Assembly: GCA_963840495.1 (NCBI GenBank)
Contig: CAWIZN010000044.1
Span: 194,055-258,054, forward strand
Reading direction: 5' to 3'
Length of the DNA: 64,000 bases
Source: an uncultured Candidatus Rokubacteria bacterium
GTDB taxonomy: Bacteria; Methylomirabilota; Methylomirabilia; Rokubacteriales; CSP1-6
Part shown: piece after piece, positions 1,190-42,945 of the stretch
Numbering within the stretch: the stretch's first letter is position 1
How the letters are laid out: each line of letters opens with the position of its first letter
The notes under the pieces: model-generated
The model's database searches: none
Told to the model about the DNA's origin: nothing
The model's input: only the letters and a program-made list of their open reading frames with translations
Position numbers and translations under genes: made by a program

Positions 1190-3382
1190 CGGCCGATCCT
1201 GCCGGCGTTGCTGGCATTGCTGGACCTCCCGGTGGAGGACGCCGCCTGGCAGACCCTCGACCCGCTGCTCCGTCGCCAGCGCACGCTCGAGGCCGTCAAG
1301 CGCCTGTTGCTCCGGGAGAGTCAGGTGCAGCCGGTGCTGGTCGTGTTCGAGGATCTCCACTGGATCGACTCGGAGACCCAGGCGCTGCTCGACAGCCTGG
1401 TGGAGAGCCTGCCGACGGCGCGGCTCCTGCTCCTCGTGAACTATCGTCCGGAGTATCGGCACGCGTGGGGCAGCAAGACCTACTACCGGCAGCTCCACAT
1501 CGATCCCCTGCCGCCCGAGAGCGCGGACGTGCTGCTGCATGGGCTGCTCGGCGGCGATGCGACGCTCCACCCGCTGCGGGCCCTGCTCATTCCTCGCACC
1601 GGGGGCAACCCATTCTTTCTCGAGGAGAGCGTGCGCACCCTGGTCGAGACCGGCGTCCTGGTCGGCGAGCGCGGGGCATACCACCTGGCCCGAGAGGCAG
1701 GCGAGCATTCAGATTCCCGAGACGGTCCAGGCGGTGCTGGCCGCCCGCATTGACCGGCTGCCACCCGAGGAGAAGCGGCTGCTGCAATGTGCGGCCGCCG
1801 TCGGCAAGGACGTGCCGTTCAGCGTGCTCACGGCGATCGCCGACGGACCGGAGTCGGAGCTGCGGCGCCGCCTCGTCAACCTCCAGGCCGCTGAGTTCCT
1901 GTACGAGGCCCGGCTCTTCCCGGACCTGGAATACGTGTTCAAGCACGCGCTGACCCAGGAAGTGGCGTACGCGGGCCTGACAAGCGATCGCCGGCGCGCG
2001 CTCGACACGGCGATCGTCGGCGTCCTCGAGCAGGTGGCGGTCGAGCGAGCCCGACGAACACGTCGAGCGCTTGGCGCACCACGCGTTCAGGGGAGAGAGC
2101 TGGTCCAAGGCGGCCACCTACCTTCAGCAGGCGGGCGACAAAGCATTGACGCGGTCCGCATATCGTCAAGCGATCGCCCATTTCGAGCGGGCGCTGCTCG
2201 CCCTCGCGCATCAGCCGGAAGCGGCGAGAACGCTCGAGCAGTTCGTCGACATCAAGATGAGCGCCCGCGTCGCCATGACTGGCCCTCGGTGAGCTCGAAG
2301 CGCGCTCGTCCATATGCGCGACGCGTTGTCGGCCGCGGAGCGGTTGCAGGACTCGGTCCGTATTGCGCTCAGCTCCAGCGGGATCGCCCACATCCTTTGC
2401 TATACTCGGGCGCGCTGTCGAAGCCCTGCCGTACGGGCGTCGCGCGGTCGAGGCCGCAACCATTCTCAACGAGAGACGGTCCACCATTCGCGCGCATATG
2501 GTGCTCGGCGCCACACATTGGCTGCTGGGGCACTATCGTCAGGCGACGGATCATCTCGAGAAGAGTCGCGAGCTGACGAAGAGTGACATTCGACGTGGAG
2601 CCGCCTTGCCGTTTTCGTTCATGGCCGACTGCGCGACCTCGCGCGCGTGGCTGGCGTTGAATCTGGTCGAGCTGGGAGAGTTCGATCTGGCCATCCGCGT
2701 GGCCGACGAAGCGGTGGAGCTCGCAGAGTCCGCCCAGCATCCTCACCTACTCGCCCGGTTCGCGGTGTCCTGGGTGCGCCTCAGGCGTGGGGAAGGGACG
2801 AGCGTCATCCCGGAGCTGGAACAGGGGTTGGCTCGGTGCAGAGCGATGAACCACCTGAATATGGCGACTCCGGATAGCGCCGCGCTGGGCCGGGCGTACA
2901 CGCTGGCGGGGCGCTCGGCGGACGCTGTCGCCCTGCTCGAAGACACCGTGATCAGAGCCGAGACCTACAACCGCGCCAATCGGGCCTTGTGGCTGAGCTT
3001 TCTGAGCGACGCGTATCTGCTCGCCGGGCGCTCCAGCGACGCCGCCGAGACCGCCCGTCGGGGCATCGAGGGAGCGCGGGCGCGGCAGGAGCGGGGTGAA
3101 GAGGCCTGGAACCTCCATGCCCTTGCTGAGGCGCTGTGTGCGGATGCTTCCGATGTGAGCGGGGCCGAAGGCCACTACCGCGAGGCCCTCGCCCTCGCCG
3201 AGGAGCTCAGCATGCGCCCCCTCGTGGCTCGCTGCCACGCCGGCCTCGCGAATCTCTACCGGCGGACCGGTCAACATCAGCAGGCTCGCGAGCTCCTCAC
3301 CACGGCGATGACGATGTACCGCGAGATGGGCATGCGCTTCTGGCTGAGCGAGGCGGAAGCTGAGATGAAAGCGTTGGAGTAG
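1190..3382 (+). pseudogene. large ATPase/TPR signal-transduction regulator (adenylate-cyclase/AAA/TPR family), 5'-truncated and frameshifted
   Basis: Pieces in three frames (track ORFs 1208..1753, 1539..2576, 2071..2292, 2314..2586, 2363..3382) join into four segments. They are ...ILPALLALLDLPVEDAAWQTLDPLLRRQRTLEAVKRLLLRESQVQPVLVVFEDLHWIDSETQALLDSLV..., then ...IQIPETVQAVLAARIDRLPPEEKRLLQCAAAVGKDVPF..., then ...HVERLAHHAFRGESWSKAATYLQQAG..., then TPR-like repeats ending RFWLSEAEAEMKALE*. The cyclase/P-loop N-terminus is missing. Frame changes are needed near 1705, 2040, 2290 and 2400. Confidence 0.65.
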
Positions 3383-3400
3383 CCGCGCGCCCGTTCCGCG

Positions 3401-3430
3401 TTGCCGCCTCCGTTCTACTCCTGATATCAT
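3401..3430 (+). promoter_or_regulatory. sigma70-type promoter TTGCCG-N18-TATCAT, positioned for a leaderless accC transcript
   Basis: TTGCCG at 3401-3406 and TATCAT at 3425-3430. The GTG start at 3440 lies 9 nt after the -10 element, with no Shine-Dalgarno in between. Confidence 0.45.
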
Positions 3431-3439
3431 GCGGGCGCC

Positions 3440-4946
3440 GTGACGCCGCCCTTCAGAAAAGTCCTCATCGCCAATCGCGGGGAGATCGCCGTCCGGGTCA
3501 TCCGGGCCTGCCGCGAGATGGGCATCGCCACGGTCGCCGTCTACTCGGAGGCCGACCGGGAATCGCTCCACGTCCTGCTCGCCGACGAGGCGGTGCTGCT
3601 GGGGCCGCCTCCCGCGGCGGAGAGCTATCTCGCCATCGACAAGCTCATCGCGGCGGCGCGGGCCGCGGGCGCCGATGCGGTGCATCCCGGCTACGGCTTC
3701 CTCGCCGAGAACGCCGCCTTCGCCGAGGCGTGTGTCGCCGCTCAGCTCGTGTGGATCGGCCCGCCGCCCTCGGCCATCCGGTCCATGGGCGACAAGATGG
3801 CCGCGCGCCGCGTGGCGATGAAGATGAAGGTGCCGGTGGTGCCGGGCACCACGGAGCCCCTCGCGGACGATGCCGAGGCGGCCCGCGTGGCGGCCGAGGT
3901 CGGCTATCCGGTGATGATCAAGGCGGCGATGGGCGGCGGCGGCAAGGGCATGCGCCTGGTCCGCGCGCCCGGCTGAGCTCGCCGGGGCGCTGCGCGCGGC
4001 GCGCTCCGAGGCCGGCGCGGCCTTCGGCGACGCCGCGGTCTACGTCGAGCGCTACGTCGAGGAGCCGCGCCACATCGAGATCCAGATCCTCGCCGACGGG
4101 CACGGCAATGTCGTGCACCTGGGCGAGCGGGAATGCTCGATCCAGCGCCGGCACCAGAAGCTGATCGAGGAGAGCCCCTCGCCCTTCGTCACGCCCGAGA
4201 TGCGGGCGCGCATGGGCGAGGCGGCGTGCGCGGTGGCGGCGGCCGTCGGCTACGTGAATGCCGGCACCGTCGAGTTCCTCGTCGACCGGGAGCGGCGCTT
4301 CTACTTCCTCGAGATGAACACCCGCCTGCAGGTCGAGCATCCGGTGACCGAGCTGGTCACGGGGCGCGATCTGGTCAAGGAGCAGCTCCGGATCGCCGCG
4401 GGCGACAAGCTCGGCTTCACCCAGGACGACGTCGTCGCGACGGGGTGGGCCATCGAGTGCCGCATCAATGCCGAGGACCCGCACGCCGGCTTCATCCCGT
4501 CGCCCGGGCGCATCACCAGCCTGCGGCCGGCGAGCGGGCCCTGGGTGCGCGACGACTCCGGCGTCTACGGCGGCTACACCATTCCGCGCTTCTACGACAC
4601 GCTCATGGCCAAGCTCGTGGTGTGGGGCCCGGACCGCGAGGCGGCCATCGCGCGCATGGCGCGGGCGCTCGCCGAGTACAAGGTGGTCGGTGTGCGGACC
4701 ACGATCCCGCTGCTCGAGCACATCGTGGCGGATCCGGACTTCGCCGCGGGGCGGCTCTCCACGGCCTTCCTCGACCGGCTGCTCGACCGGGCCCGGCCCG
4801 AGGCGCAGGGCCGGCGGCGGAGCATCGCACTGATCGCGGCCGCGCTCGCCGCCTATGACCGCGCGGGCGTGCAGGCGGCGCCGCCCGCCCCCGCCGCGAC
4901 GGGGGCGTGGAGGCAGGCGGTGCGGCCGGGCTGGAGGAGCCGGTGA
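3440..4946 (+). pseudogene. accC: biotin carboxylase (acetyl/acyl-CoA carboxylase ATP-grasp subunit), one frameshift as sequenced
   Basis: Track ORFs 3440..3976 ([29 protein letters not shown]...[20 protein letters not shown]) and 4113..4946 ([23 protein letters not shown]...[14 protein letters not shown]...) are the two halves of a biotin carboxylase. The missing link, [47 protein letters not shown], is readable in the second frame. The break is near 3970. Confidence 0.85.
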
Positions 4947-5440
4947 AGTTCCGGGCGGAGCTGGCCGGCGAGACCATCCCCATCGAGGTGACGGGCGAGG
5001 GCGGGCGATACCGCGTCGTCGTCGGCGATGCTGCGTCCGACGTCGACGCGCGCCAGGTCGCCGAGGGCATCTGGTCGATCCTCATCGGGGGCGCCTCCCA
5101 CATCGTCGACGTGAGCGAGGAGGACGGCGTCTCGCTCGTCGAGGTGGACGGAGAGAGCTATTCCATCCGGGTGGAGGAAGAGACGCGCTACATCATCCGC
5201 ACGCGCGGCGGCAAGGCGGGCGCCAGCGGCCAGGTGCTCAAGGCCCCCATGCCGGGCAAGGTCGTGCTCGTCGAGGTGGAGGTCGGGCAGGTCGTCGCGG
5301 CGGGCGACGGGCTCATCGTCCTCGAGGCCATGAAGATGGAGAACGAGTTTCGCGCGGTGGCGGCGGGGACGGTCGTGGAGATCCGCGTCGAGGCCGGCCA
5401 GGCCGTCAATCTCGGCGACGTCCTCGTCGTGATCGAGTAG
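4907..5440 (+). CDS. biotin/lipoyl-attachment (BCCP-like) protein; possibly the C-terminal part of a fused carboxylase alpha chain
   Basis: 177-aa track ORF ending ...[43 protein letters not shown]..., which contains the biotinylation motif EAMKM. It overlaps the accC 3' end by 40 nt in another frame. Confidence 0.75.
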
Positions 5441-5454
5441 CGGGAGCCCGCGCC

Positions 5455-6193
5455 GTGGCCCAGGCCATCCAGTTCAAGAGCGTCGACAAGTGGTTCGGCC
5501 CGCTCCACGTCCTCGCCGACGTGAGCCTCGACGTGGAGGCGGGCGAGGTCATCGTGGTGTGCGGGCCCTCGGGCTCGGGGAAGAGCACGCTGATCCGCTG
5601 CGTCAACCGCCTGGAGCCGATCCAGAAGGGCGAGATCCTCGTCCACGGGGAGTCCATCACGGCGCCGCGGGTCGATCTCGCGCGGCTGCGCGCCGAGGTG
5701 GGCATGGTCTTTCAGTCCTTCAACCTGTTCCCGCACATGACGGCGCTCGAGAACATCATGCTCGCGCCGGTGAAGGTCAAGGGCATCCCGCGGGCGGAGG
5801 CGCGAGAAGACCGCGCGCGAGCTCCTGGCGCGGGTGCGCATCCCCGACCGCGCGGGCTCGTATCCCGCCAACATGTCGGGGGGGCAGCAGCAGCGCGTGG
5901 CCATCGCCCGGGCGCTCGCCATGCAGCCGAGGATCATGCTCTTCGACGAGCCGACCTCGGCGCTCGACCCCGAGATGATCAACGAGGTGCTCGACGTCAT
6001 GACCGACCTCGCCCGCTCGGGCATGACCATGATGGTGGTGACCCACGAGATGGGCTTCGCGCGCCGGGTCGCCCACCGCGTCGTGTTCATGGACGCGGGC
6101 CGCATCGTCGAGGTGCAGGAGCCGGAGCCGTTCTTCGCCGCGCCGCGGTCCGAGCGGGCGAAGGAATTCCTGTCGAAGATCCTCTCCCACTAG
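5455..6193 (+). pseudogene. polar amino-acid ABC transporter ATP-binding protein (GlnQ/GltL type), one frameshift
   Basis: GTG at 5455, preceded by GGGAG. N-terminal half: VAQAIQFKSVDKWFGPLHVLADVSLDVEAGEVIVVCGPSGSGKSTLIRCVNRLEP...[24 protein letters not shown], with a Walker A motif. It continues in track ORF 5834..6193 ([33 protein letters not shown]...) with the ABC signature and Walker B. The shift is near 5802. Confidence 0.85.
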
Positions 6194-23759: not shown

Positions 23760-25046
23760 GGCGCATCGCCTGTCTCCTCGTCCATGAGCCGGCGGCGGTG
23801 CCACCCGCCTCGCGCGAGCTGCTCGAGGTCGCGCTCGCCCACTCGCCACGAGTGGAGGAAGGCGGCGCCGATCACGTGTATCTCGACGCCACCGGGCTCC
23901 GCGGGCTCTTTGGCAGCGAGGAGCAGCTCGCCCGGCGTCTCGTGGCGGCGGCGGGCGAGCGCGGGCAGGGGATCCGGGTGGGCATCGCGGGCAGCCGGAT
24001 CAGCGCGCGCTTCGCCTGCCGCTTGCGCGATGGCATCACCGTCGTCGAGCCCGAGGGCGATGCGGCGTATCTGGCGCCGGCTCCGGTGGCGCTCCTCGAT
24101 CTCTCCCCCGAGATGGCGGCGCGGCTCGACCGCTGGGGCATCCGCACCCTGGGCGAGCTGGCCGCCCTGCCCCCCGCCGCGCTCTTCGAGCGCCTCGGCG
24201 GTGAAGGGCCGCGCTTGCAGCAGCTCGCGCGGGGCGAGGATCCCCGCCCGCTCCGCCCCTGGGCGCCGCCGCCGATCCTCGAGGAGACGGCGGCGCTCGA
24301 CGATGCGGTGGAGGCGCTCGGGCCGCTCGTCGAGCTGCTGGCGACGCTCGCCGGGCGGATCTGCGATCAGCTCGCCCGGCGCGGGCGCTCGGCGGATCAG
24401 TTCGAGTGGGTCTGCCACCTGGCCGATCGCCGCCGTCACGAGGGAAGCTGCGTGCCGGCCGTTCCCCTGAGCGAGCGCGCGGCCGTCACGGCGCTGCTCC
24501 GGGCCTCCCTCGAAGCCCATCCCCCCGGCGGCGCGGTGGTGGCGGTGACGCTCCGGGCGCGGCCGGTGCGGGTCCCCGCCGCGCAGACGTCACTGGGCGA
24601 TCCCTCGCGCCCGAGCCCGCGGCTCGTCACGGCGACGCTCGCCCGGCTCGCCGCCCTGGTCGGCGCGCAGCAGATCGGCGTCCCCGTGCCGCTCGACAGC
24701 CATCGCCCCGACGCGGTCGAGCTCGCGCCCTATCAGTGTCCCCGACGCATTCCTCGACGAGCACAGCGGGCCGGGGGAAGGAGTCCGCGCGGCGCTCGCC
24801 TTGCGCCGCTTCCGCCCGCCGCTTCCCGCCAGCGTCACGCTGGTCGCCGGCCGCCCGGTCGAGCTTCGCTCGCGGCGGCTCGCCGCGCGGATCGTCATCA
24901 GCGCGGGGCCGTGGCGCGTGTCGGGGGAGTGGTGGACCGAGCGCCCCTGGCTGCACGACGAATGGGACGTGGAGCTGGGCGAGGGCGTGATCTGCCGGCT
25001 CACTCAAGACGGCTCCGCCTGGTGGCTCGACGGCATCTACGACTGA
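23756..25046 (+). pseudogene. imuB: ImuB, Y-family-polymerase-like mutasome subunit, one frameshift
   Basis: MRRIACLLVHEPAAVPPASRELLEVALAHSPRVEEGGADHVYLDATGLRGLFGSEEQLARRLV...LDLSPEMAARLDRWGIRTLGELAALPPAALFERLG... is the ImuB/DinB-like fold without catalytic acidic residues checked. The C-terminus is in track ORF 24801..25046 (...AGPWRVSGEWWTERPWLHDEWDVELGEGVICRLTQDGSAWWLDGIYD*). The shift is near 24735. Confidence 0.8.
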
Positions 25047-25139: not shown

Positions 25140-28100
25140 ATGTACGTCGAGCTGCACGCCCGGAGCGCCTTCAGCTTTCTCGAGGCGACGCCCTTGCCGG
25201 AGGCCCTGGCCGAGCGGGCGGCGCAGCTCGAGCAGCCCGCCGTGGCGCTCGTCGACGCCGACGGCCTCTACGGCGCGCCCCAGCTCTACCGCGCGTGCAC
25301 GCGCCTCGGCCTCAAGGCCATCGTCGGCGCCGAGGTGACGCTCGACGGCGGCGGTCGGCTCCCGCTCCTGGTCGAGGACCGCGAGGGGTACAAGAACCTC
25401 TGCCGGCTCTTGACCCGCATCAAGATGCGCGCGCCCAAGGGCGAGGGCGCGGCCACCGTCGACGATCTCGTCGAGCACGCGGCGGGGCTGGTCTGCCTCA
25501 CGGGCGGCGCCGGGGGCCCGGTGGCGGCGCACCTGGCCCGGGGTGACGACGGAGGGCGCGGGCGATCTCCTCCAGCGCCTGGTGACCGTCTACGGCCGCT
25601 TCAACGTCCACGTCGAGCTGCAGCGCCATCTGTCCCGCGCCCAGGAGGCGCAGAACGACTGGCTGCGCGCGCGGGCGTCCGGCCTCCGCCTGCCGCTCGT
25701 CGCCACCAATGCGCCCCGGCTCGTCGCCCGCGAGGACCGGCCGCTGCTCGACGTCTTGACGTGCATCCGGGAGCACACGACCCTCGATGCCGCGGGGCGG
25801 CTCCTCTCGCAGAACAGCGAGCGCTTCATGAAGAGCGGGCGGGTGATGGAGCGGCTCTTCGCGGACTGCCCGGAAGCCGTGGCGAACGCAGGCGAGCTGT
25901 CGCTCCGGCTCGGCTTCACCCTCAAGGACCTCGGCTACCAGTTCCCCGACTATCCGCTGCCGCCGGGCGAGACGCCCATCGGCTACCTCCGCGCGCTCTC
26001 GGAGGCGGGCGCGCGCACGCGCTACGGCACGGGGCCGCTCGCGGAGCAAGGCCCGCCGCCAGATCGCGCACGAGCTCGACGTGATCGGGCGCCTCGATCT
26101 GGCCGGCTACTTCCTCATCGTCTGGGACCTGGTCCAGTACTGCGGCCGGAACGAGATCCTCGTGCAGGGGCGGGGCTCGGCGGCCAATAGCGCCGTGTGC
26201 TACGCGCTCGGGCTCACCGCCGTCGATCCGGTGGGGATGGAGCTGCTCTTCGAGCGCTTCCTCTCCGAGGAGCGCGGGGAGTGGCCGGACATCGACCTCG
26301 ACCTGCCGAGCGGCGACCGCCGCGAGAAGGTCATCCAGTACGTCTACGAGCGCTATGGCCGCCTCGGCGCGGCGATGACCGCCAACGTCATCACCTATCG
26401 CGGCCGGAGCGCGGCGCGGGAGGTCGGCAAGGCGCTCGCGCTGCCCGCCGATCTCATCGAGCGGCTGTCCCAGCTCGTCAGCAACTGGGAGTACAAGGAC
26501 CCCGGCGATACGCTCACCGCGCATCTCGGCGAGGCCGGCTGCGATCCCGGCGACCTGCGCATCCAGCACTTCGCGCGCGTGTGGACGGCGATCCAGGACC
26601 TGCCGCGGCATCTCGGCCAGCACTCCGGCGGCATGGTGATCTGTCAGGGACGACTCGATAGCGTGGTGCCGCTCGAGCCCGCCACCATGCCGGGCCGCTC
26701 GGTGATCCAGTGGGACAAGGACGACTGCGCCGCCCTCGGCATCGTCAAGGTGGACCTCCTCGGCCTCGGCATGATGGCGCTCCTGGAAGACGCGCTCGAG
26801 ATGATCCGCCGCGCGCGGCGGCTCGGTCGACCTCGCCCATCTGCCCCAGGACCGCGAGGTGTACGAGATGCTGAAGAAGGCCGACACCATCGGCGTCTTC
26901 CAGGTCGAGAGCCGCGCCCAGATGGCCACCTTGCCGCGCCTGCGGCCCGAGTGCTTCTACGACCTCGTGGTGCAGGTGGCGATCATCCGGCCGGGCCCCA
27001 TCGTCGGCGACATGGTGCACCCCTATCTCCGCCGCCGCGCCGGGCGCGAGAAGCCGACGGTGCCCCATCCCGCCCTCGAGGAGATCTTGAAGCGCACGCT
27101 CGGCGTGCCCCTCTTCCAGGAGCAGCTCCTGCGCATGGCCATGGCGACGGCGGGCTTCACCGGCGGCGAGGCCGAGGAATTGCGGCGCGCCTTCGGCTTC
27201 AAGCGCTCCGAGCGCGCCATGAAGGCCGTGGAGACAAAGCTCCGCGCCGGCATGACCCGCCAGGGCATCGTGGGCGAGCAGGCCGAGAGCATCATCCGCT
27301 CCATCACCGCCTTCGCGCTCTACGGGTTTCCGGAATGCGTCGTCGGCGAGACCCGGGTGATCGACGCCGACACCGGCGGATGGGTGAGGATCGAGGACAT
27401 CGTGAACGGACGCGTGCGCGTCGAGCACACGCTCGCCTGCGACCCGGACATGAAGCTGCGCAAGCGCCGCGTGCTCGCCGCCACGTCGAGCGGCCCGCGG
27501 ATGGTCTATCGCCTGCGCACCGCGCTCGGCCGGGAGCTGTTGGCGACGCCCGAGCATCCGTTGCTCACGATGGACGGCTGGCGCCCCCTGGGAGCCCTCA
27601 AGGAGGGAGACCATATTGCGGCATCGCGTGAGCTTGCACCCCTCGGTCGCAAACGCTGGCCTCAGTACCGGCTCATCGTGCTCGCCGATCTCATCGCCGA
27701 AGGCAATCTGTGTCATCCGAGCACACTGTACTTCTACACGACGGATCCTCAGTATCGAGACGAATTTGTGAGCGCTGTCGAGAGATTCGAGAACACACGA
27801 GCAACCATAGCCTTCACAAGAAAACTGCTACAGCGTGCATGTCCGGCGGGCCGACGCCACGAGGCCGATCGGAGTAGTCGAATGGGTGAAGCAGCTTGGA
27901 ATTTGGGGGGACGGCGCGCGCACGAAGCATCTACCAGAGGAAATATTCCTCCTGCGAAGCAGCGATCTCGGTCTGCTGCTTGCTCGGCTGTGGGAAGGCG
28001 ACGGATCTTTGTCGCTCGCTGGCCATGCTTCGTACGACACTGTATCGCGCCGACTCGCTCAGGAAATCCAACACCTGCTCCTGCGAATGGGAATTGTGTC

Positions 28101-29511
28101 GCGATTGTATAAACGGGCTCGGCCATGCCGCGATGGAATTGCGATAGGGTTTGTCGTCACGATTACCGGGCAGAGGAACCTCCGTCGATTCCATCGTGTG
28201 ATTGCTAGACGGTTTCTCAACGCGAGCAAGCGCCGGCTGATGGAGCAGATAGTTCAGCGTCGAAGAGATGGCCGCGCCTCTCGAGACGTCATCCCAGTGG
28301 CGGTGAGGGCCATGGTCGATTCAGCTCGGCAGAAGCCGGCGGCTGACTGGGATAGGCTCGGGCGAGGAGACGAGGCTATCGATGCGTGCCATCTGCTCAC
28401 CAGATGGATCGAAACGTGGATACCGTCGACGAACGATTGTCCGCTTGGCCCGGTATTCGAGTGCCGGATGGCGCCTGGCGGGGTCCGATGTCTGCTGGGA
28501 TCGGGTCACCGCGGTCGAGCTGGTCGGTGAGCGGGACACGTACGACCTGCACGTCGAGGAGGACCACAACTTCATCGCCAATGATCTCGTGGTGCACAAC
28601 TCGCACGCGGCGAGCTTTGCGCTGCTCGCGTATGCCAGCGCCTACCTCAAGCGGCATCATCCGGCCGCGTTCTACGCCGCGCTCCTCAACAATCAGCCGA
28701 TGGGGTTCTATCACCCGGCCACCATCGTGCGGGACGCCCAGCGGCACGGGCAGGTGATCCATCCCGCCGACGTCAACTTCTCGGGATGGCTCTGCGCCAT
28801 CGAGCCCGACGAGGCGGTGCGGCTCGGGCTGCGCTACGTCAAGGGCTTGAGAGAGGAAATGGGCAAGCGCATCGAGGAGGAGCGCCGGCGGGGGCCCTTC
28901 GCCTCGGCGGCCGATCTGGTCAAGCGCACGGAGGTGCGCCGCGACGAGCTGACCCAGCTCGCCCGGGTCGGCGCCCTCGCGAGCCTCGAGCCCGAGCGGC
29001 GCGCGGCGCTCTGGGACGCCGAGCGCGCCGTCCGTCCTCGCGGGGTCTTGTATGACGCGCTCCCGGATCCCCGGAGGCCTCCCCACTTCGGGTGATGACG
29101 CCGGGAGAGCTGATCGTCGCGGATTACGAGGGCACCGGCTTGAGCCTGGGGCCTCATCCGATGGAGTTTCACCGGGCGCGGCTCGACCGGATGCGCGCGT
29201 CGCGGGCGTCGGATCTGGCGACGATGCCCCACGGCATCCTCGTGCGCGTGGCGGGCGCGGTGGTGGTGCGCCAGCGTCCGGGCACCGCCAAGGGCTTCGT
29301 CTTCCTGAACCTGGAGGACGAGACCGGGCTCATGAACGTGATCGTGCGCCCCGCCCTGTTCCACCGCTACCGGCTCGCGCTGGTGAACGAGCCGTTCCTC
29401 TACGTGGAAGGCACGCTCCAGCACCAGGACAATGTCGTCTCCGTCAAGGCCGAGCGCCTCGCCCCGCTGCGCCACCGCCTCACGCCGGTTCCCTCTCACG
29501 ACTTCCACTGA
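25140..29511 (+). pseudogene. dnaE2: error-prone DNA polymerase III alpha-like DnaE2, intein-containing, multiple frameshifts as sequenced
   Basis: The PHP start is MYVELHARSAFSFLEATPLPEALAERAAQLEQPAVALVDADGLYG. It continues through track ORFs 25543.., 26081.. (GRGSAANSAVCYALGLTAVDP...PDIDLDLPS...), 26859.. (GVFQVESRAQMATL...IIRPGPI...), 28382.. (SHAASFALLAYASAYLKRHHPAAFYAALLNNQPMGFY...) and 29092..29511 (OB-fold end). Extein frame changes are near 25540, 26050, 26820 and 29070. It sits directly after imuA-imuB. Confidence 0.9.
27336..28600 (+). mobile_element. intein with LAGLIDADG homing-endonuclease domain inside DnaE2
   Basis: The N-extein/intein junction is YGFPE|CVVGETRVIDADTGGWVRIEDIV (Cys1 at 27336). 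The dodecapeptide motifs are LIVLADLIAEGNL and LGLLLARLWEGDGSL. The C-terminal block is TYDLHVEEDHNFIANDLVVHN|SHAAS (Asn at 28598-28600, +1 Ser). The region is visibly AT-richer than its flanks. There are two internal frame changes, near 27820 and 28420. Confidence 0.85.
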
Positions 29512-29771
29512 GGCGCGGCGACGGCCGTGCATCTCACGCCGGTGGGACAAAGCTGGACCGTGGGGGGATGGGGGCTGCCGGCGCATCGGCCGCCACCCGG
29601 CGAGGGCGCCTGCTCGGCCCCGCAGGCGATGCACCACGCCACCCCCTCGGCGAGGAGCCGAGCCTTCATCCGGTAAAACGTCGGACGCTCAGCCGCATCG
29701 CCTACACGCCTTGTGCCGCTAACTGAATCTTTCCCGTCAGCACGGCTCGAGCAGCCAACGGCCGCCGCCAC

Positions 29772-29800
29772 GAGGTGACGGAATTTCCCGCCGTCACCTC
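29772..29800. other. perfect 10-bp stem hairpin (gaggtgacgg / ccgtcacctc, 9-nt loop)
   Basis: Arms at 29772-29781 and 29791-29800. The hairpin lies at the boundary where GC content drops, downstream of dnaE2. Confidence 0.5.
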
Positions 29801-29876
29801 ATGGCAGCCGAGCGCGCGCGTCACTTCTTGGGGGGTGGGGTGCCGACGCTCGTGCAGCGTGGGTCGAGAAAATCAG

Positions 29877-30407
29877 TCAGGCTCTTCGTGCCAGCTCGTT
29901 GGTCACGTAGGTCGTGAAGAGCTGCGCACCTGGGCGAACCTCATACGCAGCGATGAGAACCGCGAAGAGAGTCTTGTTGGCGCAGAGAAATCCGGCAAGC
30001 TCCGGGACCGAGTTGATGTCGGTCTGCCACTCGAGATCGTCGAGGATGCTCCTGCGTAGCCCGTTGGGTCGCTCGGCTTCGTGAAGATCAGGCCGGCGGC
30101 CGGCGTGCAACGCCGCGATGACCGAGTCGATGAAGGCGCTCGACGCGCCGTCGAGGGTGTTCAGTTCGGCAAGACAGGCAGTCTTGGCCGCCGCCAGGGC
30201 TGCCTCCTTGGCCGGGCTGTTCTGGATGTTGGCAAATAGGAATTGCTTGGCGCACATCCTGAACGACCCCGAGTTCCCTGCCGAGGAAGTCCTGCTGAGC
30301 GTCCATGATCGCGATCTCACAGTTCTGATCTTTGTCTGCTTCGCTGCGGGCAGTGCGGTCGCCTGGCCGGCCGACGTCGCGAGGACACCGGCGAAGACGA
30401 GCGTCAT
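29877..30407 (-). CDS. hypothetical protein with signal-peptide-like N-terminus (lower-GC island)
   Basis: 176-aa track ORF, MTLVFAGVLATSAGQATALPAA...; I recognise no family. The middle 30 aa are odd (basic, Ser/Arg-rich). An overlapping frame (ORF 30088..30477) reads more protein-like there (CEIAIMDAQQDFLGRELGVVQDV), so two compensating frameshifts are possible. Confidence 0.35.
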   Translation of the reverse strand: MTLVFAGVLATSAGQATALPAAKQTKIRTVRSRSWTLSRTSSAGNSGSFRMCAKQFLFANIQNSPAKEAALAAAKTACLAELNTLDGASSAFIDSVIAALHAGRRPDLHEAERPNGLRRSILDDLEWQTDINSVPELAGFLCANKTLFAVLIAAYEVRPGAQLFTTYVTNELARRA

Positions 30408-30771
30408 AGCCGGGACGAGCGTGAGTCTGATCGCGCATTCGACTCCTCCTTCCGTCGCTGTTCGATCCGGTCGTCACTGTGACACGAGCCGCCGGATGCC
30501 TGGGGGCAGGACCTCCAACGAAGGGATTGGCGGCGTCGGCTCGACAGTCGAACGCACACTTGGCGATTCGTCCAAAGGGAGCCGTGGCTGATCGCGGACC
30601 AAGTTAGGCCGAGGAAAGATCGGTCTCAATGCGTGCCAAGTCGGATACAGGTTGCGGCAGGCGGTAAACAGGCCCTCAGGCGCGATCTACACGGCTCCCG
30701 TCGCTGAGCACCGCTCACCGCAGTTCCTCCCAAGAGTCTCATCGACCCTGTTCGCCAGAGCGCCTGAACAC

Positions 30772-30835
30772 CAGCCGATCGGGTTCTATCACGGCCACCA
30801 TCGTGCGGGATGCCCAGCGGCACGGGCAGGTGATC
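30772..30835 (+). repeat. dnaE2-derived direct repeat / gene relic (copy of 28694..28759)
   Basis: cagccgatcgggttctatcacggccaccatcgtgcgggatgcccagcggcacgggcaggtgatc matches dnaE2 28694-28759 with 2 substitutions and a 2-bp gap. That dnaE2 segment encodes NQPMGFYHPATIVRDAQRHGQVI. Weaker similarity extends ~20 bp on each side. Confidence 0.75.
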
Positions 30836-30968
30836 GATGCACCTCCGTGAGAACTGCCGTAGCGTCATGACCCGGAGCAGACCGCGCGCCCGATCCATCA
30901 GGAACGCGAGGACCGTTCCTGGTAGAGTGGCCGGGAAACCCGAGCCCAACGACGAGGGGAGACTGCGC

Positions 30969-32984
30969 ATGGAGCCTCGCGAGGAGACGATGTCGGTCGG
31001 CGGTGTCGACGTCCACGTGTGGACAGGCGGGCGCGGCGATCCGCTGCTGGTGCTGCACGGCGCCGGCGGCAATCGCGGCTTCACGCGATGGCTCCGGCAG
31101 GTGGCGGAGCGCTACACGGTGTGGGCGCCCACGCATCCGGGCTTCGGGCGATCGGGCGACGCGGACTGGATGGAGACGGTCGACGACCTCGCGCGGTTCT
31201 ACCTCTGGTTCATCGAGGCCGCCGGTCTCGGCCGCCCCCACCTGCTCGGCCAATCGATCGGCGGGTGGACGGCGGCGGAGATGGCGGCCATGAGCCCGCG
31301 CGCGATCGACCGGCTCGTGCTGGTGTCGCCCGCCGGGCTCAAGCCCGAGACCGGCGAGATCCTCGACGTCTTCTACTACCCGGCGCTGCAGCTCCGGGCG
31401 ATGACCGTCCACGACCCGAAGACGATTCCCGAGTGGGAGGAGCTCTACGGCCGGCCGCCGACGCCCGCCGAGATGGAGATCGCCACGCGCAACCAGGAAA
31501 TGACGGCGCGCCTGGCGTGGAAGCCCTACATGCACAATCCGCGGCTCGCGCATTTCCTGCCGCGCGTGACGAACCCGGCGCTGATCGTGTGGGGGCGTGA
31601 GGACCGCATCGTGCCCGTCGAGTGCGGCGAGCAGTACCGCCGGCTCCTGCCGAACGCCACGCTGTCCGTGCTCGAGGGCTGTGGCCACCTGCCGCCCATC
31701 GAGCAGCCCGACGCCGTCGCGCGCCTCGTGATCGACTTCCTGGGAAGGGGCCCGGCCATGAAGCTCTACTACTTCAGCGAGATGCCGCATCACGAGTTCC
31801 CCGACGAGGAGGGCCTCAAGTACCCCTCGCTCCGCCTCGAGTTCCCCAACCGCTTCTTCAACCCCGCCATCGCCGCGTCGAACTACCAGCGCTATCTGGA
31901 CGAGTACGAGCTCGCCGATCAGGCGGGCTTCGACGGGCTCATGATCAACGAGCATCACTCCACGCCCTCGTGCGTGAACGTGGGCGTGAACATGACCGCG
32001 GCCGTGCTCGGTCGCATCACGCGGCGGGCGAAGATCCTGCTCCTCGGCAATATCCTGCCCATCGAGGACAACCCCGTGCGCATGGCCGAGCAGATCGCCA
32101 TGGCGGATCTCATCTCCGGCGGCCGCGTGCTCTCGGGCTTCGTGCGCGGCGTCGGCGTCGAGACGTGGTGGGCCAATACCAATCCCGTGCACAATCGCGA
32201 GCGCTTCGAGGAGTGCCACGACCTGGTGCTCAAGTGCTGGACGGAGCCCGGGCCGTTTCGCTGGGAGGGCAAGCACTACCACTTCCGCCACGTCAATCCG
32301 TGGTGCCTGCCGCTTCAGAAGCCGCATCCGCCGATCTGGGTGCCGGGCACGGCGAGCCCGGAGACGGCGATCTGGGCGGGGCAGCGCGGCTACACGTACG
32401 TGCCCTTCCTGGTGCCCTTCGACATCGCCCGCGAGCTCTTCGACTACTATCGTCAGGGCGCCGCCGAGGCCGGGCGCACCGTCACGCCGGACAACCTGGG
32501 CTTTCTCATCTGCGCCGTCACCGCGGACACGCGGGCCAAGGCGCTCGAGGCGGGGCGCCACTTCGTCTGGCGCATGGGGCCGACCCTGCGCGCGCCGCTC
32601 GAGTTCATGTCGCCCGTCGGCATGCGCTCGCGCGCGGGCAATCAGTTCGCCCTGCGCGCCCGGCCGCGCTCGCTCGCCGCGATGAGCTACGAGGAGCTGA
32701 TCGCCGAGCACTTCATCATCGCGAGCACGCCCGACGAGGTGGCCGACCGCTTCGCGTACATCCAGAAGGAGCTCGGCATCGGCCATCTCCTCCTCGAGGC
32801 CCAGGAGTCGCGGATGGACCACCCGACGACGATGCGCTCGATCGAGCTCATGGGCGCCAAGGTCATCCCCGCGATGGGCGCGCTCGCCTGCAGGATCGCC
32901 TCGGCATTCCGAGCCATCGCCACGCGAGTGGCGCCCGCCTTGCGGAACCACTCGTCGATCACCGCGTCGTGCCGTCGGCCGTAG
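30969..32984 (+). CDS. alpha/beta-fold hydrolase fused in frame to an LLM-class flavin/F420-dependent oxidoreductase
   Basis: ATG at 30969 after GAGGGGAG. Residues 1-263 are hydrolase-like: ...PLLVLHGAGGN...HLLGQSIGGWTAAEMAA...GCGHLPPIEQP (GxSxG elbow and a C-terminal His). This runs directly into FLGRGPA-MKLYYFSEMPHHEFPDEEGLKYPSLRLEFPNRFFNP...DGLMINEHHSTP... (luciferase-like). There is no stop in frame. A TGA at the junction exists only in the +1 frame (ccATGAag). Confidence 0.75.
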   Translation: MEPREETMSVGGVDVHVWTGGRGDPLLVLHGAGGNRGFTRWLRQVAERYTVWAPTHPGFGRSGDADWMETVDDLARFYLWFIEAAGLGRPHLLGQSIGGWTAAEMAAMSPRAIDRLVLVSPAGLKPETGEILDVFYYPALQLRAMTVHDPKTIPEWEELYGRPPTPAEMEIATRNQEMTARLAWKPYMHNPRLAHFLPRVTNPALIVWGREDRIVPVECGEQYRRLLPNATLSVLEGCGHLPPIEQPDAVARLVIDFLGRGPAMKLYYFSEMPHHEFPDEEGLKYPSLRLEFPNRFFNPAIAASNYQRYLDEYELADQAGFDGLMINEHHSTPSCVNVGVNMTAAVLGRITRRAKILLLGNILPIEDNPVRMAEQIAMADLISGGRVLSGFVRGVGVETWWANTNPVHNRERFEECHDLVLKCWTEPGPFRWEGKHYHFRHVNPWCLPLQKPHPPIWVPGTASPETAIWAGQRGYTYVPFLVPFDIARELFDYYRQGAAEAGRTVTPDNLGFLICAVTADTRAKALEAGRHFVWRMGPTLRAPLEFMSPVGMRSRAGNQFALRARPRSLAAMSYEELIAEHFIIASTPDEVADRFAYIQKELGIGHLLLEAQESRMDHPTTMRSIELMGAKVIPAMGALACRIASAFRAIATRVAPALRNHSSITASCRRP

Positions 32985-41931: not shown

Positions 41932-41940
41932 TGGTAGACT
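41932..41940 (+). promoter_or_regulatory. extended -10 element TGgTAGACT, leaderless layout for the peptide-ABC ATPase gene
   Basis: TGGTAGACT at 41932-41940. The ATG at 41949 lies 8 nt downstream, with no SD. Confidence 0.4.
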
Positions 41941-41948
41941 GCCGCCCG

Positions 41949-42945
41949 ATGAGCGAGGTCCTCCTGGACGTCCGGGACCTGCACACCCACTTCGCGATCT
42001 CCGGGGCGGTGGTCCGCGCCGTCGACGGCGTCTCCTGGGACGTGTGGCCGGGCGAGACGGTGGCGCTGGTCGGCGAGTCCGGCTGCGGGAAATCCGTGAG
42101 CGCGCTGTCCGTCATGCGCCTCGTGACCCGGCCGGCCGGGCGCATCGTCAGCGGGCGCATCATCTTCAAGGGCCGGGATCTCCTCGAGCTGTCCGAGGAC
42201 GAGATGCGCCGCGTCCGCGGCAAGGACATCGGCATGATCTTCCAGGAGCCGATGACGTCCCTGAACCCCGTGCTCACGGTCGGGCGCCAGCTCACGGAGA
42301 CCGTGGAGATCCATCTCGGCATGACGCCCGCCCAGTCGCGCGCGCGGGCCATCGAGCTGCTCACGCTGGTGGGGGTCTCCGACGCCGAGCGGCGCCTCCG
42401 CCAGTACCCGCACCAGTTCAGCGGGGGGATGCGCCAGCGCATGATGATCGCCATGGCGCTGTCGTGCAATCCGGCCCTGATCCTCGCGGACGAGCCCACG
42501 ACGGCGCTGGACGTGACCATCCAGGCGCAGATCCTCGAGCTGATGAAGGGGCTCTCCGCGCCGGCTCGGAGCGGCCATGCTGATGATCACGCACAACCTC
42601 GGGGTGGTCGCCCGGTATGCCGATCGCGTGAACGTGATGTACGCGGGGAAGATCGTCGAGCGCGCCACGGCCCGCGAGCTCTACGCCAATCCGCGGCATC
42701 CCTATACGCTCGGGCTCTTGCACTCGGTGCCGCGGCTCGACGAGCCGCGGCGGGCGAAGCTCGATCCCATTCCCGGCCAGCCCCCGGACCTGAGTCGGCT
42801 CCCGGGCGGGTGCTCCTTCGCCCCGCGCTGTCCCTACGTCATCGAGCGGTGCCGCGCGGAGGTGCCGCCACTCGATCTCGTCGGCGCCGAGCACCTGAGC
42901 GCGTGCTGGGTGGCGAGCGAGCTCGGCAAGGCGGTTCCCGCATGA
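41949..42945 (+). pseudogene. oligopeptide/dipeptide ABC transporter ATP-binding protein (DppD/OppD type), one frameshift
   Basis: [58 protein letters not shown]...[50 protein letters not shown] continues in track ORF 42577..42945 ([28 protein letters not shown]...HPYTLGLL...C-terminal oligopeptide domain). The shift is near 42560. Confidence 0.85.

Follow-up and report, generated by a model that had tools for sequence, protein, structure and literature searches.

Scars of homology-facilitated illegitimate recombination (HFIR) and of the integration of incomplete circles have been described in Acinetobacter, S. pneumoniae, P. stutzeri, and E. coli (PMC3240628). In E. coli, single-crossover integration of incomplete circles duplicates 109 to 950 bp of the homologous locus (PMC3240628), and a like logic has been proposed for the orphan 3' fragments found in type VI secretion system (T6SS) effector-immunity arrays and in Rhs toxin/immunity arrays (PMC5361080). 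Here we describe a duplicated piece of dnaE2, the error-prone polymerase gene of an imuA-imuB-dnaE2 cassette, in an uncultured Candidatus Rokubacteria bacterium. The window that we analyzed is a stretch of 64,000 nucleotides (nt) of contig CAWIZN010000044.1 (assembly GCA_963840495.1). One copy of the repeat lies inside dnaE2 and the other, here called the relic, lies about 2 kb downstream, close to a hydrolase gene. An earlier note on this DNA had read the two copies as the bracket of a decayed integrated element.

We favor a different reading, to which we give a probability of roughly 0.7: the relic is a dead fragment of this genome's own dnaE2, the scar of an illegitimate recombination or break repair event that was linked to the gain and loss of a mazE-PIN toxin-antitoxin (TA) cassette. 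The repeat has no function today. What had appeared to be a decayed island at the gene for a mutasome polymerase is corrected to resident DNA plus a recombination scar of ~150 nt.

The relic and its insertion site

The features that carry this reading are as follows (positions are those of the window).

28694..28759, plus strand: source copy of the repeat, within dnaE2, starting 97 nt beyond the intein and encoding NQPMGFYHPATIVRDAQRHGQVI.
30764..30917, no strand: composite insertion (the patch) of ~135 to 155 nt, specific to this lineage; absent from relative L028, with the site uninterrupted in relative L036; edges uncertain by +/-10 to 20 nt.
30772..30835, plus strand: relic copy of dnaE2 28694-28759, recognized by sequence match and by variants specific to this genome.
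30838..30899, minus strand: what is left of a PIN_3 (VapC-like) toxin gene, its last ~22 codons, recognized by nucleotide identity to the 3' ends of PIN genes in relatives.
30900..30917, no strand: 18-nt filler, AGGAACGCGAGGACCGTT, forming an 8-bp inverted repeat with adjoining bases (CAGGAACG/CGTTCCTG).

The repeat itself is as the earlier note described it. Sequence comparison shows that 28694-28759 and 30772-30835 run in one direction and differ by two substitutions and a 2-nt gap, and weaker similarity around the pair reaches ~28675-28763 and ~30753-30839. These are the only two copies in the entire 4.8-Mb assembly, and the BLAST E value of 1e-22 rules out a chance origin. We found no repeat family, Rfam family, or tRNA target at the repeat.

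The relic is 97% identical to the dnaE2 of this genome, ~2 kb away. Within the 66-nt core, both read GCC ACC where L036, L031, L030, and L029 read GCG ACG, and more distant relatives differ from the core at 10 to 15 positions. Because the relic carries dnaE2 variants of its own lineage, it was copied recently from the dnaE2 of that lineage and stems from neither a paralogue nor a distant donor. Three candidate sources were rejected. The protein of the paralogue dnaE1, on C6, reaches only 33% identity, which agrees with the choice of dnaE2 over other dnaE genes in the earlier note; a foreign dnaE2 is ruled out by the variants specific to this genome; and intein homing does not account for a relic that is not the homing site and begins 97 nt away from where the intein inserted.

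Beyond the downstream copy there is no dnaE2 3' sequence. Abutting the copy instead is a toxin gene fragment (30838-30899) that the earlier note did not mention, so that the patch consists, in order, of the dnaE2 relic, the 3' end of a PIN gene, and the 18-nt filler. The fragment is 89% identical to L031 1931-1866 and L036 1998-1933 (62 to 66 nt, E ~1e-16), and 83 to 86% identical to cassettes of L032, L034, and L035. Its translation reads ...MDR.AR..LRVMT.RQF.TEVH; it contains indels and is part of no intact toxin open reading frame (ORF) with a PIN domain. The joint with the relic lies one or two codons before the native toxin stop, and homology begins within a few nucleotides of that stop, where the cassettes of different loci also cease to resemble one another. 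There is no MazE-like sequence in 30900-30969. The middle junction, between relic and PIN fragment, has an overlap of 0 to 2 nt, and the left junction lies in a microhomology, GCGC(T)CCT, common to the intergenic site and to dnaE2 28678-28686. The right junction is taken up by the filler. At all three, assembly errors blur the exact bases. The filler folds at -17.3 kcal/mol (z -3.1). Read as the MazE-side end of the cassette, it gave only ~11 of 16 matches by eye, which we treated as chance. A second, inverted copy of the PIN end to the left of the relic (30712-30750) was not significant, as 2 to 20 of 200 shuffles (20 of 500 in one run) scored equally.

The site itself can be recognized in relatives. 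Between the hydrolase gene and the gene to its left, which encodes a protein of 202 amino acids (aa), this genome has 531 nt of intergenic DNA, versus 260 to 269 nt in L028 and in the contig of homologue P0006. At the position of the patch, L036 reads CCAGGGTCTCCCTGGTAGAG without interruption, its site being an unbroken CCAGGG-TCT-CCCTGGTAGAG. The two halves of the same palindrome stand apart in this genome, with a degenerate left half at ~30754-30763, a right half at 30918, and the patch between them. To the left, the native intergenic DNA closes with a degenerate version of the motif CCCTGTTC..GCCAG.G (compared with L036), and the sequence beginning at 30918 shares 98% identity with L036. 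Once the patch is taken out, GCCAGAGCGCC plus CCTGGTAGAG is as long as GCCAGGGTCTC plus CCTGGTAGAG in L036, while an alternative alignment moves the edge by 10 to 20 nt. Judged from these alignments, the patch looks like a clean insertion at the center of a 6-bp palindrome, CCAGGG-TCT-CCCTGG.

In L047 (844-1032), the 202-aa gene and a hairpin are followed by a 37-nt motif, GACCC.GGCGGGA.CAGGGCCTCGGCC.CTCGAG, as found upstream of the L036 hydrolase gene, and after it stands a gene starting MDHIGIDVH that resembles an IS110-family transposase. The 37-nt motif may be an insertion hot spot. A scan with the motif upstream of the hydrolase gene gave only a chance match, in Gallaecimonas.

The cassette and the intervening DNA in relatives

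The toxin fragment has its intact counterparts directly behind dnaE2 in the closest relatives. L036 is 97 to 98% identical to this genome over imuA, imuB, dnaE2, and the hydrolase gene; there, dnaE2 is followed by PIN (convergent), MazE, 67 nt, and the hydrolase gene, and the 202-aa gene is missing. In L031, dnaE2 is followed by PIN, MazE, another copy of its own 3' end (155 nt), a hairpin, and the 202-aa gene. Both modules begin 6 to 9 nt past the dnaE2 stop and match PF04014, PF13470, and TIGR01439. The two L031 copies of the dnaE2 3' end (978-1129 and 1943-2096) are direct repeats, 88% identical, and bracket an intact mazE-PIN_3 module (L031:881-2100), a textbook arrangement for single-crossover or homology-facilitated insertion.

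In the intact module of relatives, the antitoxin and toxin genes overlap and are preceded by a palindromic operator, which reads CGGAATT.C.GAAATTC.G and lies ~25 nt upstream of mazE. The cassette of ~770 nt (operator, mazE, and PIN) recurs in other Rokubacteria at 84 to 89% nucleotide identity to the L031 copy, with PIN proteins 82 to 95% identical to that of L031. Its usual home (L032, L034, and L035, ~4600-5480) is beside a divergently transcribed zinc-ribbon (DZR) gene. Given that the cassette occurs in several gene neighborhoods, it has moved and is therefore mobile. This genome has only distant relatives of MazE and PIN (30 to 42% aa identity), on other contigs, and a dnaE2/PIN junction was found in none of 159 family genomes. 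The earlier idea of a scar of mobile DNA survives to the extent that the relic is fused to a toxin 3' end and that the cassette lies beside dnaE2 in the closest relatives; the integrated island that went with the idea does not.

The remaining features of the locus lie around and between the two copies.

25140..29511, plus strand: dnaE2, identified by tblastn, with imuA and imuB upstream.
27336..28597, plus strand: intein with LAGLIDADG endonuclease in dnaE2, seen as a gap in the alignment to intein-less DnaE2.
29772..29800, no strand: perfect 10-bp hairpin separating dnaE2 from the convergent 202-aa gene, supported by fold energy and conservation.
29821..30438, minus strand: conserved gene for a signal-peptide protein of ~202 aa, delimited by homologue alignment and synteny.
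30439..30763, no strand: native intergenic DNA upstream of the 202-aa gene, aligning with L029, L030, L031, and L028 to ~30646-30692.
30970..32984, plus strand: alpha/beta-hydrolase plus luciferase-like monooxygenase ORF (Pfam), the resident right neighbor.

The DNA between the repeats is resident and ancestral and not an island, as arrangement and composition both recur in relatives. Positions 28601-30535 are collinear with L029 at 89% identity, and the corresponding values are 91% for L030, 90 to 93% for L031, and 83 to 86% for L028. L029 has imuB and an intein-less dnaE2 convergent with the 202-aa gene, and dnaE2 is likewise convergent with the 202-aa gene in L030 and L048. The hydrolase gene of L028 and of the P0006 contig is divergent from the 202-aa gene and begins 260 to 269 nt upstream of it, and on both contigs a short minus-strand ORF comes after the 202-aa gene; the L028 stretch with this ORF aligns with dnaE2 28883-29523 of this genome. 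Downstream of dnaE2, synteny with the family-level relative G003 was uninformative. The earlier note had asked whether related genomes lack 28760-30835; in the relatives the dnaE2 3' end, the hairpin, and the 202-aa gene recur at 83 to 93% identity. An ancestral arrangement of this kind is what the note itself had named as evidence against its island.

The 202-aa gene had been described as an orphan secreted-protein ORF at 29877-30407. Those limits were mistaken, and the real gene (29821-30438, minus strand) belongs to a conserved family. We found 10 homologues, 9 of them full-length at 202 to 207 aa, in metagenomes only; measured against seven intact homologues of 202 to 207 aa, the gene as assembled has at least five frame switches. 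The family (homologues P0005 to P0013) has conserved cysteines and a C-terminal PPPKK, and it has no match in Pfam, NCBIfam, or PHROGs. On every contig checked, the gene adjoins dnaE2 sequence, the hydrolase gene, or both. The reported drop in GC is real (0.63 over ~29700-30900 versus 0.70 to 0.74), but the foreign origin drawn from it does not hold, since low GC is a trait of the 202-aa family: the gene has a GC content of 61 to 64% in all five lineages compared, and dnaE2 has 71%.

The perfect 10-bp hairpin at 29772-29800 was correctly recognized, and its fold is very stable (-26.4 kcal/mol on the plus and -31.8 kcal/mol on the minus strand; z -6.1 and -6.5). It is kept in L030 and L031 and partly in L029. 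A terminator scan gave no T-run there, and the hairpin is probably a bidirectional terminator without a U-tract. The supposed helix-turn-helix remnant at 29496-29771 has no match in Pfam, PHROGs, or NCBIfam, and much of this stretch is absent in relatives. The ORFs of 29496-30870 likewise match no integrase or mobile-element family in these databases; as the note had said, there is no integrase at the locus, and we found no remnant of one.

dnaE2 is interrupted in two ways. Its intein begins CVVGETRV and ends VVHN, followed by extein S; it has a GC content of 62%, and the reading frame changes inside it as well. L036 has a mini-intein, lacking ~880 nt of the endonuclease part (27592-28470 here; L036:3053-3085), the L029 dnaE2 has no intein, and the end of the L030 contig shows the C-terminal end of one. 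Intein presence and size are thus polymorphic among very close strains. The second kind of interruption is frame breaks. A tblastn search with the 1035-aa DnaE2 of G003 covered residues 1 to 1034 in six pieces in alternating frames, and the exteins as assembled have at least four breaks, near 25540, 26040, 26810, and 29090, the last of which falls in the 3' end that had been called intact.

Breaks of this kind are not peculiar to dnaE2. The assembly, a metagenome-assembled genome (MAG), is 80% complete and has ~1100 frameshift-like phase switches genome-wide (~0.23 per kb), counted with a codon-position hidden Markov model trained on its own long ORFs, a switch being scored on one strand with the old-frame stop >60 nt beyond. 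In the window, Pfam domains are split across frames in an acyl-CoA carboxylase alpha chain (2619-5437; biotin carboxylase, BT, and biotinyl domains) and in an ABC ATPase (5451-6150), and the oligo_HPY domain of an oligopeptide ATPase (41937-42935) is in a different frame. imuB changes frame near its 3' end (24800-24856), its true end being 25046 and not 25123. Compared with L036, the dnaE2 breaks are single-base indels with adjacent mismatches, outside homopolymers. The frame breaks in dnaE2 and its neighbors are probably assembly indel errors rather than biology. That dnaE2 is a true pseudogene with at least six frame breaks is unlikely, given the ~1100 similar breaks genome-wide, the split domains of neighboring genes, and the 1-nt indels. 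L036 likewise has breaks in dnaE2 and in PIN. If the frame breaks are assembly errors, the 2-nt gap and the substitutions of the relic may partly be errors too. The frame breaks of this MAG should not be taken as pseudogenization.

Proposed origin of the insertion and competing explanations

We propose that the scar arose by illegitimate recombination, either nonhomologous or microhomology-mediated, or by repair of a double-strand break, at a time when the mobile mazE-PIN cassette would have lain right behind dnaE2, where it is still found in the closest relatives. We infer two possible routes, the first of which we slightly favor. In route (a), the ancestor would have resembled L031. A break at the intergenic palindrome would have been patched with two stretches from nearby, both oriented alike and either copied or captured, namely dnaE2 28694-28759 and, 776 nt further on, the first 62 to 66 nt past the PIN stop. 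The repair would have closed with the filler, formed by snap-back, and the cassette would have been lost later, by recombination between the duplicated dnaE2 3' ends. In route (b), a segment running from ~28685 in dnaE2 to the stop and on through PIN and MazE would have been inserted by homology-facilitated illegitimate recombination or by single-crossover recombination of an incomplete circle, and two deletions would then have trimmed the insert. Route (a) needs two events and accounts for the apparently clean insertion. The genome has two loci for Ku (PF02735), on C36 and C63; the Ku gene at G000:C36:66732-67270 is itself split by an assembly frame break.

Several points weigh against the scar that we propose. 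Route (a) needs a patch made from two templates, and route (b) needs three events together with a coincidence of breakpoints within ~15 nt. We found no intermediate, such as a complete second copy of the dnaE2 3' end or a full cassette at 30838, and the relic-PIN junction was found nowhere else, neither in pattern scans of metagenome and genome collections nor in the 159 family genomes. Just to the left of the patch, the match with L036 is only ~17 of 22, leaving that edge uncertain by 10 to 20 nt. Windowed substitution distances between relatives carry too much noise for recombination breakpoints to be placed, and both the MAG and L036 are indel-rich assemblies.

The state of the assembly also invites a simpler account, in which error-prone long reads were assembled into a chimera of co-occurring variants with either the 202-aa gene or the TA cassette after dnaE2. 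The incompleteness of the MAG, its many phase switches, and the neighboring Pfam domains split between frames would all fit, and a variant that is 97 to 98% identical but different in structure does exist (L036). A mixture of strains, however, would bring in sequence from the MazE side of the cassette, the side next to the hydrolase gene in L036, and would not join a 64-nt internal piece of dnaE2 to the far, PIN end of the cassette, a junction present in no known variant; chimeric reads join long pieces and not 60-nt ones; and the relic carries dnaE2 variants specific to this genome. We consider such an artifact improbable.

Equally unlikely, in our estimate, is that the dnaE2 3' region underwent a purely local duplication in tandem and then lost parts by deletion, with no mobile cassette involved. 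The near identity of the relic to the resident dnaE2, its orientation, and the 2 kb between them are what such a duplication would give, but several precisely placed deletions would be required and the PIN fragment fused to the relic would go unexplained.

The integrative element of the earlier note fares worse still, and we think it very unlikely. On this account, an element targeted dnaE2 28694-28759 and brought a replacement 3' end and cargo, the downstream copy being the right attachment site, attR, with the displaced fragment. Direct repeats in the same orientation do bracket the 3' end of the gene and a lower-GC stretch, and L031 has a comparable geometry in its duplicated dnaE2 3' end flanking a TA cassette. 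Yet the intervening DNA is conserved in relatives that have no relic, the GC of the low-GC gene is the same in every relative compared, a PIN fragment rather than a dnaE2 3' end follows the downstream copy, and no integrase or mobile-element family was matched. Recombination between the repeats would moreover truncate DnaE2 at about residue 790. An empty site, an integrase, a displaced 3' end, and a foreign composition would each have been expected of such an element, and none was found.

Hardly more credible is a functional repeat, whether as a reversible excision site for the dnaE2 3' end and the 202-aa gene or as a homology arm of the TA cassette to the mutasome locus: the cassette does adjoin dnaE2 sequence at two junctions, one in L031/L036 and another here, with duplicated dnaE2 segments flanking DNA in both cases, but only ~22 codons remain of the dead cassette here, there is no recombinase, the junction occurs in this genome alone, and in most genomes the cassette lies elsewhere, beside the zinc-ribbon gene. 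We give scarcely any credence to a bolder version in which mazE-PIN is a homology-guided hitchhiker of the SOS mutasome locus, with dnaE2 pieces as its recombination arms and the 64-nt repeat still usable; if it were true, excising and restoring the dnaE2 3' end would be an on/off switch of error-prone repair at the level of the population.

As an ordinary recombination scar, made of a gene fragment and a toxin gene fragment, the feature is of low general interest. It belongs to a wider pattern in which closely related Rokubacteria differ in what follows dnaE2, which may be the conserved secreted-protein gene, the mazE-PIN cassette, or both. Such variation shows that small addiction modules are gained and lost by illegitimate recombination, leaving duplications of gene fragments behind.

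Comparison with known systems

Integrative elements that enter at the 3' end of a gene and bring a replacement copy, such as islands targeting tRNA or tmRNA genes, resemble this locus in that a direct repeat of gene sequence brackets DNA downstream. They differ from it in that this locus has no integrase, its repeats enclose ancestral DNA, the repeat comes from within the gene, and no displaced 3' end comes after the repeat. Among type II TA systems, those combining a MazE/AbrB antitoxin with a PIN_3 VapC-like toxin provide the match to 30838-30899, a homologue of the toxin gene's 3' end. With only ~22 codons, and with neither antitoxin nor promoter, it is a pseudogene fragment and not a module.

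Patches left by Ku/LigD end joining or by template switching are closer. Like them, this scar is a composite of short stretches from nearby, with apparent microhomology at a junction, a snap-back filler, a palindrome at the apparent insertion point, and Ku genes in the genome, although the mechanism cannot be demonstrated from sequence alone. Filler or templated patches at double-strand breaks are usually shorter in bacteria, on the background of mycobacterial nonhomologous end joining (NHEJ) and of microhomology-mediated break-induced replication (MMBIR).

The scars of HFIR and incomplete-circle integration share with this locus a foreign, toxin-type module beside a conserved gene, a short duplicated piece of that gene left behind, and the lack of a dedicated recombinase. 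Duplicated dnaE2 segments flank nonhomologous DNA in two forms, as 64 to 66 nt beside the PIN fragment in this genome and as 155 nt around mazE-PIN in L031, and duplications of 64 to 155 nt are near or within the experimental range of 109 to 950 bp. This genome departs from those scars in that nearly all of the cargo has been deleted, in that no anchor or crossover point can be demonstrated, and in that the duplicated piece is internal to its gene and lies 2 kb off, beyond a resident gene.

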